Of a stretch of DNA of 64,000 nt, positions 7,234-9,512 are shown piece by piece. A program made the position numbers and the translations under genes. Source of the stretch: a virus (Duplodnaviria; Caudoviricetes); IMG/VR virus record IMGVR_UViG_3300012979_000002, positions 1 to 64,000 of that record; one strand, 5' to 3'. Every line of letters begins with the position of its first letter. Positions within the stretch are counted from its first letter, which is position 1. The notes beneath the pieces are model-generated. The model saw only the letters and a program-made list of their open reading frames with translations, did no database searches and had not been told where the DNA came from.

Positions 7234-7342
7234 CCTTTCATAAAAATTTTTAAAGATGTTTTTAAGTCAAAAGACTTGAAAACTGGCACCGATTTATTAT
7301 ATAATTATAATGTAAATCAAAAAGAGATTGTTTTAAATCTCG

Positions 7343-7434
7343 CCAATAGGGAATGGAATATAAGTTGCGGAAATAGTATCCTATGAACATACGCTGGATA
7401 CCTTATACAGGCTAAGTTCTCTATTCTCTATTGG
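7343..7434 (+). ncRNA. candidate rod-shaped ncRNA
   Basis: 15-bp closing stem 7343-57/7420-34; promoter 7276-7305. Confidence 0.55.
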
Positions 7435-7488
7435 GGGGATTTAAACCTCCACATAATTATCAATTTTTTTCAAGAACCCATTTTTTTC

Positions 7489-8250
7489 TCACAACACCTA
7501 TTGTGTGTTGTGATAAGATAATAGTAGGACTACAGAACGGTAAGCCGGAACATCCTGTGAGGAGTGATTGCCAATAATCAGGTAGCCCGTAAGTCGCGTT
7601 GAACACTACTCTTGTCTTATCAGAGCACACAGTTAGTAATTAAGTCAATGGCTTGTTTGTCTTTGCTATTGTGAGTTCTGGAAACCCGGTTGTGAATAGT
7701 CGTTGTGGCTATTGATAGTAATATGAAACGGACCGGCATGCAATCTGTAGAGATTGGGTTTGGGATTGCACAGAGAAACTTTGCTACGAGTACTCTTGAT
7801 GTTGTAGGTTCTATGGCAGGGCACTGCTCCACCATGTTTAGGGGCAGTCTGTGATGGAAGTGCTAACTATAACTAAACTCATTAGCACTGGGTGATAAAT
7901 TAAGAATACTCATAGGAGAGTTTCTCTCCACACACCACCTTGTAAAAATCTTATTAGATGGGCGAGTTATATCTCGCTCGGATAAGATAAGTGATTATAC
8001 CTTATCCTACCCGAGGGGGATACAACCCCGAATAAGATATACTCCACATTTTAATTATGGTAAGCACCTAATAAGGCGAAGCCGCTACGCCATACCTATG
8101 ATTGGGTATGGTTATGGCGAAGCCGCTAGATTAGTTTTGAACCCTCACGGGTTTCCCTCACTGAAATGTTGAGGCAGACCGTACGGTGAGTAGGAGTAAT
8201 TAACCTACAAAAAGTGGGGGCGGGCCGCGAGGGTTTAAAATTACCATAAA
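7489..8250 (+). ncRNA. candidate large multi-domain ncRNA (or tandem ncRNAs)
   Basis: ~760 nt with no convincing ORF, almost fully covered by nested stems. Confidence 0.6.
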
Positions 8251-8334
8251 ATTAGAAAAAAAGAGTAGTCAAAAGGTTATTTAATTTGATATAATATATT
8301 TGTAAATGAAAGAAATAGTGAGTTAGAATATGAA

Positions 8335-8845
8335 GCACATAAGAAAGGGCTGTGTGTATTACCAAATACGAAAGGAGCGTGGTCCGAGGTAGATTACTAC
8401 CGAACCTTGTGCGAAGAATATCAGTGCTGTAAATCTAACCTTTCAATATAACATAATGCAGCCTACTGCTAGCGAAAGTGTAGGCATACGGTGACTCCGA
8501 CAAACAGTGCGTTCGTTTAAATCAACCACCTAGTAGAAATAGTCCTTATTCTCCCTTCCGCAGGACTGAGTAGATAGTATCCACTGAGTCGCTCAGCTCC
8601 TGCGTTTAATATAGTTTTTTATTAGGGGGTTTGAGGTTGGTTCTTCAAACCTTGTAATAAGCAACTATATTAAAACGATAAAGTTGTTATCCATCATACC
8701 GGATAAGAGGCCCCGGTTTCAGTTTAAAGTGCGGCAAGGCTATGGTGCCGGTCAGGTCTGATTCCCTGATGCGGGCAGCTAGATGAATACATACAGAAGA
8801 TGGAAGGAAAAATATGAGTAGCCTAAGTATCGGCGGCTATGATTT
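8335..8845 (+). ncRNA. candidate large structured ncRNA
   Basis: Follows -10 box at 8290; many hairpins including 8606-8673. Confidence 0.5.
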
Positions 8846-8963
8846 TAACCAATGGTCTGAGAGTGAAAATATTTTTCCAAAAAATTAGTAAAAAGACTTG
8901 AATGTTGGTGGCGTCTAGAGTTATAATTTATTTGTAAATGAAAAAAGAAAGAGAGTTGAGTTT

Positions 8964-9122
8964 ATGAGTAGAGAAACTATGCTAGAGTTGATTAAAGAAT
9001 TGTCGGCTCGTATCCAAATTGCTATCAAATACTGTGAAGATGGCAACTATAATAAACAAGACATCATTGACATCTTATCCGGCGACCTAAAAATGGACGA
9101 GGATGAAGAAAATTACTATTAA
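8964..9122 (+). CDS. small hypothetical protein (52 aa)
   Basis: MSRETMLELIKELSARIQIAIKYCEDG...; own promoter 8898-8927. Confidence 0.65.
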   Translation: MSRETMLELIKELSARIQIAIKYCEDGNYNKQDIIDILSGDLKMDEDEENYY

Positions 9123-9217
9123 ATTTAAAAAAACACTTGAAACTCGGCAGTAGAAAGTGTTATAATAAATATGTAAATTAAAGAAAGGAAGAACTAAAAG
9201 TTCTAAGGGTGAAAACT

Positions 9218-9481
9218 ATGAACAAAGAAATCAAAATAACTGCTAAAATGGAATTAGCAATGAAAGTAGTAAAAGAAATGGGAGGTAAAGCATACGCTAG
9301 AGAAGTATTAGAATACTTAGATGCTAACTATGCTGACAGAACAGACTTAACTTCATTCAACGCTGTTAATGCTACATTAGCAGCAATCGCTGGCAAAGAC
9401 CTAATGAAGAAAACAAAAGGTATGTTCAGAGAAAAATTACTAACTCAATACGAATTAGTTGAAGCAGAAGATGCTGAATAG
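9218..9481 (+). CDS. winged-helix DNA-binding protein
   Basis: FNAVNATLAAIAGKDLMKK...LTQYEL; highly expressed codon bias; paralogue of 11827-12129. Confidence 0.8.
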   Translation: MNKEIKITAKMELAMKVVKEMGGKAYAREVLEYLDANYADRTDLTSFNAVNATLAAIAGKDLMKKTKGMFREKLLTQYELVEAEDAE

Positions 9482-9485
9482 TGGA

Positions 9486-9512
9486 AGGACAGTAGAAATA
9501 CTGTCTTTTTTT
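9486..9512 (+). terminator. intrinsic terminator
   Basis: GACAGT-AGAAAT-ACTGTC plus T-run. Confidence 0.8.

Follow-up and report, generated by a model that had tools for sequence, protein, structure and literature searches.

Large structured RNAs with solved structures include GOLLD, ROOL and OLE, all of which form self-assembling RNA-only particles, and we know of no function for GOLLD or ROOL despite those structures. Smaller structured RNAs are encoded in the tRNA cluster of phage T4, which yields the stable small RNAs known as species 1 and 2 or RNA C and D. Species 1 and 2 are not tRNAs, are co-transcribed and processed with the tRNA cluster and have no assigned function, and the T4 RNAs are single units of about 120-140 nt in a phage of Gram-negative bacteria. 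In the Bacillus phages SP82 and SPO1, early transcripts contain RNase III processing hairpins that separate protein-coding units; these are long conserved stem-loops with a small internal loop, located between the units of strong early sigma-A transcripts of these large Firmicutes phages. ROOL is a large structured RNA of phages and prophages, often found beside tRNA islands and without known function (PMC5737381, PMC12286853). GOLLD is also phage-borne and located by tRNAs, one copy having first been seen downstream of tRNA-Met, and its 3' region is universally conserved, the 5' region less so (PMC12286853).

The locus analyzed here lies in a window of 64,000 nt of phage DNA, to which all positions refer unless another sequence is named. 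An earlier note had proposed that positions 7489-8040 encode a candidate giant ornate RNA of five or more consecutive multi-branched domains, possibly a new large-ncRNA class. On the evidence of sequence comparison, the locus is best described as a real, new and narrowly distributed modular phage ncRNA family and not as a monolithic giant RNA. Of the earlier proposal, the new conserved structured ncRNA stands, whereas a single giant RNA with at least five obligatory domains is not supported, because only a 5' domain and the rod at 7491-7634 are present in all lineages. Our proposal in full, namely that ~7312-7947 on the plus strand, possibly extending to ~8250, is a trans-acting ncRNA locus of a non-Rfam family, is one that we regard as probable rather than firm; confidence is high in its descriptive part and low in the mechanism. 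As with ROOL, the RNA occurs in a phage near tRNA genes, but here a conserved part of ~310 nt, composed mostly of unbranched rods plus one pseudoknot, is followed by optional domains. With GOLLD it shares the phage setting, the adjacency to tRNAs and the division into one conserved and one variable half, but the polarity is reversed, the 5' core being conserved and the 3' domains variable. OLE (RF01071) is an ornate Firmicutes RNA of ~600 nt, and an OLE-like segment is present in the same island (2912-3067); this match, however, lies 4.4 kb away, and the genes for OLE's known membrane-protein partners were not seen beside the RNA among the nearby ORFs scanned. The likeness to the T4 RNAs, as a structured non-tRNA RNA accompanying a phage tRNA cluster, is one of description. 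The likeness to the SP82/SPO1 hairpins is one of form, and the rods described here differ in having conserved tips and no ORFs.

The absence of recognizable GOLLD- and ROOL-class motifs, which the earlier note had remarked upon, was borne out by scans with all 4227 models of Rfam 15. These covered the window, the slices 6500-9500 and 7300-8262 (963 nt), both at E<=10, and the homologs, and returned no credible match in the region or its homologs, even at E<=10; the best matches were to snoRNA and miRNA models at 12-21 bits (the top one a snoRNA, 21 bits). No match to the GOLLD, OLE, HEARO or raiA models was found in 7300-8262. The ROOL model (RF03087; threshold 99.1 bits) did not match in the window, in the E<=10 slices or anywhere else in the 120.5-kb genome. 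A relative designated G002 (IMGVR_UViG_3300028797_000007) served as positive control for this model with a score of 186.8 bits, as it carries a full-length ROOL immediately downstream of its homolog (L046 593-1181, minus strand). Hence, the RNA is distinct from ROOL and a neighbor of it, since G002 has both side by side and the genome of the window has no ROOL.

The window corresponds to bases 1-64000 of a 120,526-bp IMG/VR virus record, rated complete. The 'terminal repeat' of the record is only a 123-bp overlap of its ends, and the genome start point is therefore arbitrary. Its large terminase shares 37% identity with the Geobacillus virus E3 protein, the remaining terminase matches being to phages of Bacillus, Lactococcus, Enterococcus and Clostridium, and strong AGGAGG ribosome-binding sites precede the genes; this is a 120-kb phage of gut Firmicutes type. 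The genome begins with ~9.3 kb and ends with ~10 kb of a single RNA-rich island of ~19 kb, which runs across the ends of the record and contains 28 tRNA genes (one in the end overlap, called twice), a tmRNA and many ORF-poor, GC-enriched blocks. The tmRNA, flanked by tRNAs, is on the minus strand at genome positions 115010-115407, outside the window (L081 11011-11408), with an ARAGORN-predicted tag ANKVKSLFSFNSVVYA and an Rfam score of 107.6 bits. The RNA locus lies 230 nt downstream of tRNA-Met (7007-7082), and the GOLLD/ROOL-like context proposed earlier, a phage tRNA/ncRNA island, is thus upheld. No ORF of at least 55 aa is present in window positions 6408-9209, and none of the neighboring ORFs scanned could be assigned to a Pfam or PHROG family.

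Several other elements of the island were observed. The OLE match at 2912-3067 (plus strand) is partial but strong (92.5 bits, model positions 437-594 of 616) and sits between phage tRNA genes, which is unusual in a phage; a phage bS21 gene, sought for a link with ideas on OLE and bS21, was not found. A tRNA-like gene at 7087-7229 (plus strand) has intact acceptor, D and T arms and a structured insert of ~75 nt in place of the anticodon loop, and is not called by ARAGORN or Rfam. Its insert contains a repeated ACAGGUAACA and a UUGAUUG loop. This gene is kept in relatives (L030 ~5706-5862, L022 ~4040-4175 and L054), and in G002 and G004 the insert occurs alone with its own closing stem. A further promoter-driven, ORF-free RNA, with a start reading ...GUGAGUUAGAAUAUGAAGCACAUAAG, is located at 8296-8900 on the plus strand; it has clear homologs in G003 (L025 ~2460-2720), L054 and L050, and probably represents another conserved ncRNA family. 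Many promoters of the island also share a transcript start with the consensus AUAUAUUUGUAAAUGAAAGAAAUAG (8283-8312; L022 ~4217-4245 and ~4921-4949; L025 ~1396-1425), and the shared promoter and transcript start suggest a common 5' leader signal for early RNAs.

Homologs were identified through the phages related to the source genome. A terminase search of IMG/VR delineated a clade of 110-118-kb phages with 77-91% identical terminases. BLAST of 7300-8250 against the phages of this clade yielded two short pieces only, and homologs were found by reading the diverged loci at the same place beside tRNA-Met in five related IMG/VR phages. The loci read showed one layout in diverged form: tRNA-Met is followed by the tRNA-like gene, which bears a long insert, and then by a promoter and the structured 5' domain. 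Next come the GC hairpin, the motif CCAUUUUUUUCU and a small hairpin, and a long stem with a conserved tip completes the order. From a motif scan of metagenomes came three further sequences along with several duplicates, a human-gut assembly among the sources. Comparison across lineages gives a core identity of 50-73%. BLAST found no member of the family among 50,697 GenBank phages, and motif scans of IMG/VR and of GTDB species representatives, with matches re-scored by the covariance model or inspected individually, returned no member outside the clade. The RNA family is therefore, on the collections searched so far, narrowly distributed, with members in one phage clade.

The interval 7489-8040 is structured, as the earlier note had supposed. 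Its predicted folding energy on the plus strand is -176.2 kcal/mol, compared to -146.8 +/- 6.7 for shuffled sequences (z -4.37; 0/100 shuffles as good). Domain by domain, folding is strong for 7490-7634 (z -4.2), 7771-7929 (z -5.2) and 7946-8040 (z -4.5) and weak for 7635-7680 (z -1.6) and 7681-7770 (z -1.2). The minus strand of 7489-8040 also folds well (z -5.39), and fold energy alone can hence not pick the strand. The plus strand is instead singled out as the RNA by the excess of G.U over A.C oppositions in supported helices (38 versus 4), together with promoters oriented in the same direction. No conserved ORF is common to the homologs, and one homolog has no ORF of at least 30 aa on either strand over 491 nt. 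Taken as comparative evidence, these data show a locus without coding potential in which structure has been selected on the plus strand. The same observations bear on the possibility that the region functions as DNA, for instance as an origin of replication or packaging or as an inverted-repeat recombination hot spot, or is else a chance fold in an AT-rich spacer. The folding of the minus strand would suit a DNA element, and the region is in fact a rearrangement hot spot among the relatives. However, the 38:4 ratio is expected of a plus-strand RNA and not of DNA cruciforms, single-stranded loops are invariant, promoters lie upstream, and compensatory changes maintain the structure at 50-73% identity. 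We consider this explanation exceedingly improbable.

The proposed start of the interval at 7489 requires revision, as the conserved RNA begins about 170 nt upstream, with a promoter and a 5' pseudoknot domain of its own. The promoter (7276-7305, plus strand) is of sigma-A type and near-consensus (TTGAAA, 18-nt spacer, TATAAT; promoter-scan score 11 of 12), and G005, G003 and G002 have promoters at the equivalent position. The lineage formed by contig 125346, L049, L050 and L054 has no promoter there, the RNA coming straight after the tRNA-like gene. The next promoter downstream is at 8266-8295, and no convincing terminator was found in 7305-8266, where the scan returned a single weak 5-bp site (8115-8128). 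The first structural element is the hairpin P0 (7324-7341; GAGATT/AATCTC), the 3' arm of which can alternatively pair with a G-run at 7433-7440. This alternative is the one used in the minimum free energy fold of the window and in the alifold consensus (positions 13-18 with 116-121), with changes seen on both sides; P0 proper is weak in G003. The 5' pseudoknot, or leader, domain (7343-7434) is built from a closing helix that encloses a hairpin, the loop of which base-pairs with a strand lying upstream. The closing helix, of 12 bp, is 100% paired in the homologs with 8 pairs doubly changed, and at most 1/500 shuffles reached any of five measures. Over the whole 5' domain, of which the window copy is the most divergent, 92.2% of positions are paired and 11 of 22 pairs show changes on both sides; covariation extends to the inner hairpin, and the 7324-7450 region has a fold z of -5.3. 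The pseudoknot helix (CCGUA in the upstream strand with UACGG in the inner hairpin loop) is invariant in eight sequences and becomes CGGCA/UGCCG in G004, this sole double change coming from a single divergent homolog.

The 5' domain is followed by a GC hairpin (7433-7450; GGGGGGAUUU/AAACCUCC), present in five of six lineages as GGGGUU..AACCCC, and by single-stranded U tracts (7464-7489) with U7 at 7464-7470 and 7481-7487. The CCAUUUUUUUCU motif within them is kept in five of six lineages and is duplicated in the window only; G004 has no U tract. The resulting order of aptamer-like domain, GC hairpin and U7 is that of a cis-acting attenuator or riboswitch, in which the 5' pseudoknot domain would act as a sensor and set how far transcription continues beyond the GC hairpin and U tract into the RNAs downstream. 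The conservation of competing pairings (the P0 3' arm and G-run against the GC hairpin, and hairpin A, described below, against the stem extension) is also in keeping with such a device. An intrinsic terminator at this point was nevertheless rejected, since the spacing from GC hairpin to U tract is 7-14 nt, too far for intrinsic termination, and the terminator scan found no site there. A transcription-terminating riboswitch or attenuator has the U tract 0-2 nt after the GC hairpin and controls a downstream gene; with the terminator-like hairpin 7-14 nt from the U tract, the locus falls outside this definition. In addition, the U tract is missing in G004, no downstream ORF occurs before 9209 and no riboswitch or T-box model matches. 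We thus give very little credence to cis-acting control.

The second conserved domain, module 1 (7491-7634), is a 145-nt rod in which a 25-bp stem, interrupted by a G x G mismatch that in the window is G x A, carries an irregular hairpin tip. The tip is invariant (GCCGGAA, UGAGGAGUGAUUR-CCAA and UAGCCCGUAA), and the loop in the conserved core reads GGAGUGAUU. A covariance model of the stem and tip (R1) scores 137.6 bits on the window and 103-155 bits on seven homologs, reaching 146-155 bits in G005, G003 and contig 125346 and 103.5 bits in G002, and detects a weak, shortened copy in G004 (28 bits). In a model-guided alignment of eight sequences (A4), 95.7% of cells are paired, compared to 33-44% when the partners are slid by 1-3 columns, 19 of 41 pairs are doubly changed, and none of 500 shuffles reaches any measure. 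Over the whole core, taken from the 5' hairpin through module 1, there are 61 consensus pairs, 31 of them with compensatory changes (alignment A3). The covariation that the earlier note had called for is therefore present in both the 5' domain and module 1, with modest per-pair statistics given that the homologs represent about six independent lineages of one phage clade. The hairpin proposed at 7489-7513 was recovered at 7490-7512, as were the stems ATAAGATAA/TTGTCTTAT and AGAGAAACTT/GAGTTTCTCT. The comparative consensus of module 1, however, has no branch point: in place of the multiloop with TAAG- and GTGA-capped hairpins drawn at 7513-7620, it is an unbranched, irregular long hairpin, and those capped hairpins are not conserved. 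The hairpin at 7490-7512 (hairpin A; CACAACAC/GUGUUGUG) is mutually exclusive with the base of the module 1 rod. It is present in every lineage with differing arms (GCAGUG/CACUGC, CGCAGUC/GGCUGCG, GCAGC/GCUGC) and the pairing that competes with it lengthens the module 1 stem by 8-9 bp (7501-7509 paired to 7624-7632); every lineage keeps both, and the competition could be a folding guide or a switch.

Two candidate pairing partners of the invariant loop were considered and set aside. The first was mimicry of a Shine-Dalgarno sequence: GGAGUGAUUR can pair with the 3' tail of a 16S rRNA of Firmicutes type, with an energy of about -13 kcal/mol, and is the best 16S-tail site in five of seven homologs. 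Sites of equal strength are nonetheless common (33% of shuffles, 17 of 68 coding windows), and this complementarity is hence at chance level and no evidence of function. The second was phage sequence complementary to the loop, for which only short, unconvincing 9-mers were found (e.g. AAUCACCCC at 6838).

The domains that follow module 1 differ from it in their conservation. The linker at 7635-7680 has little structure and no homolog was found for it, and the domain proposed at 7621-7680 shows neither significant folding nor conservation; the linker holds CUUUGCUAU, which resembles the base of the LS rod. Module X (7681-7770) comprises a CCGG-closed arm and a hairpin GCAAUC[CUGUAGAGAUUGGGUUUGG]GAUUGC. 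Its segment 7681-7764 shares 89% identity with a unit that stands by itself, flanked by two tRNA genes, elsewhere in G005, its hairpin stem covaries (GUAGAC/GUCUAC, GUAGUC/GACUAC, GCAGUC/GUCUGC, GUAUCC/GGAUAC), and in G004 an X-like hairpin lies upstream and not downstream of the 5' domain. Its presence is optional. In the LS rod (7771-7929), a long closing helix with conserved CUUU-G-CUA / UAG-G-AGAG, in which G faces G, ends in a branched tip that varies. The LS homologs in G005, G003, G002, 125346 and L049 fold as long closed rods with differing base sequences, G003 having UUUC-G-UUA opposite UAA-G-GGGA, and the tips are unrelated between lineages. The long rod previously delimited at 7772-7927 accordingly folds and has homologs but is not obligatory, being absent from L054 and L050, both of which are 95-99% identical in the core to the LS-bearing L049.

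In all lineages, the last rod is followed by a tail motif (7930-7947; CACACCACCUUGUAAAAAU, with ACAACCUUUCAU in relatives), of which 7934-7945 has a near-copy at 7230-7241, right after the tRNA-like gene. It could mark the edge of a unit, serve in processing or be the scar of a recombination event. No enrichment of ACAACCTTTCAT was seen elsewhere in the window, and a role as a general signal was set aside. The 3' rod domain (7948-8038) has a partial homolog in G003 only, where its helix UAUCUC-G-CUCGG/CCGAG-G-GGGAUA is matched by UUC-G-CCUGA/UCAGG-G-GGA. Comparison with this one partial homolog favors a long hairpin with a G x G mismatch over the four-way junction drawn by the earlier note, and the 3' rod is a possible part of the same RNA. 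Two further structured domains (8055-8249; fold z -3.0 and -5.0) precede the promoter at 8266-8295 and are probably co-transcribed with the RNA locus, of which they may be part. The 3' domains have little or no comparative support, and 7925-8262 has no BLAST-detectable homolog in the relatives. Among these domains, the hairpin flanked by GGCGAAGCC is matched in G002 by one that lies behind the homolog there. At 8055-8130 (plus strand) the hairpin is flanked by two copies of GGCGAAGCCGCUA, and the G002 counterpart (GGCGAAGCCACCAC ... GGCGUGGCCGCCACC) is located at L046 ~1200-1275 on the minus strand.

The 5' domain and module 1 are thus the only domains jointly present, and in that order, in all six lineages. 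Because L054 and L050 lack LS, X is a separate unit in G005 and the order is shifted in G004, the locus is, on this comparison, a conserved core of ~310 nt with interchangeable rod modules; the close phages show the gain, loss and movement of accessory rods (X, LS and 3' rod). These natural variants also weigh against one indivisible giant ornate RNA of GOLLD/ROOL type, in which the domains from ~7324 to 8040 or 8250 would form a single, possibly self-assembling particle. Such an RNA would fit the lack of a promoter or convincing terminator in 7305-8266, which makes one primary transcript of ~0.95 kb plausible, as well as the G x G feature found in all rods. The niche would also be that of GOLLD and ROOL (a phage, beside tRNA-Met; PMC12286853, PMC5737381), and GOLLD is likewise half conserved and half variable. 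Yet phages lacking LS occur naturally, X exists by itself in G005, the order differs in G004, 7925-8262 lacks detectable homologs, no covarying contact between domains was seen and no ROOL, GOLLD or OLE model matches. A single giant particle is consequently unlikely in our assessment.

The opposite arrangement, a string of unrelated small RNAs cut apart like the adjacent tRNAs, with the 5' domain and module 1 functionally unlinked, draws on the same modularity. The modules fold independently and are gained and lost independently, the linker between the 5' domain and module 1 is U-rich and single-stranded, and these phages do have small structured RNAs that stand alone between tRNAs. Several observations nevertheless tie the two core domains together. 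They are adjacent and in the same order in 6/6 lineages, hairpin A links the linker to the module 1 stem, both domains contain CCCGUAAG and GUCAG(G/C)CG, and the module 1 model R1 weakly recognizes the 5' domain (23 bits, E 0.003, in G002). We rate unlinked small RNAs as a quite unlikely account. The shared motifs and the weak R1 match suggest that the rods may be old duplicates. A further feature common to the rods is a G opposite G, 6-11 bp above the base of each (G opposite A in module 1 of the window), in the context 5'-YY-G-C...G-G-RR-3'. It is found in the 5' domain (A3 columns 19 and 115), module 1 (A4 columns 20 and 141), LS and the 3' rod. A GUGAUUR/UUGAUUG motif recurs at 3416, 6538, 7153, 7564 and 7991, forming hairpin loops in four different structured blocks (3416, 7153, 7564 and 7991), and may be a shared binding site.

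For a conserved core with interchangeable rods, promoters and structure suggest a mode of action along the following lines. Host sigma-A polymerase would transcribe the RNA early from the 7276-7305 promoter, and in the lineages without a promoter the RNA would be co-transcribed with tRNA-Met and the tRNA-like gene. The product would act in trans as a stable structural RNA, and the invariant tip of module 1 would be the place where a protein or RNA partner binds specifically. In the rods, the G x G mismatch would most likely be a shared site for protein recognition or for processing by a double-strand RNase, which may allow rods to be released or bound as separate modules. The field of action would most likely be the host translation or RNA-processing machinery, because the island has 28 tRNAs and a tmRNA and a relative has an adjacent ROOL. 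A more far-reaching and rather doubtful extension is that the two-domain core is the working part of a new phage RNA machine that acts on host translation or RNA processing together with the tRNAs, the tmRNA and the tRNA-like scaffold. ROOL would be its companion or substitute, and swappable rods would tune it to hosts or defences. If true, this would provide a second, simpler entry point to the function of tRNA-island RNAs.

For the biology of these phages, the locus adds a further family, unrelated to GOLLD and ROOL, to the phage tRNA-island niche. Close phages that keep the ~310-nt core while adding, dropping or moving whole rod domains constitute natural experiments, as does the relative with ROOL right behind its homolog when set against the phage of the window, which has none. 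Since the RNA is small and naturally variable, it is tractable for mutational and structural work. More broadly, the genome illustrates that gut phages can give an island of ~19 kb to RNA genes, comprising 28 tRNAs, a tmRNA, an OLE-like piece and several unassigned RNAs.
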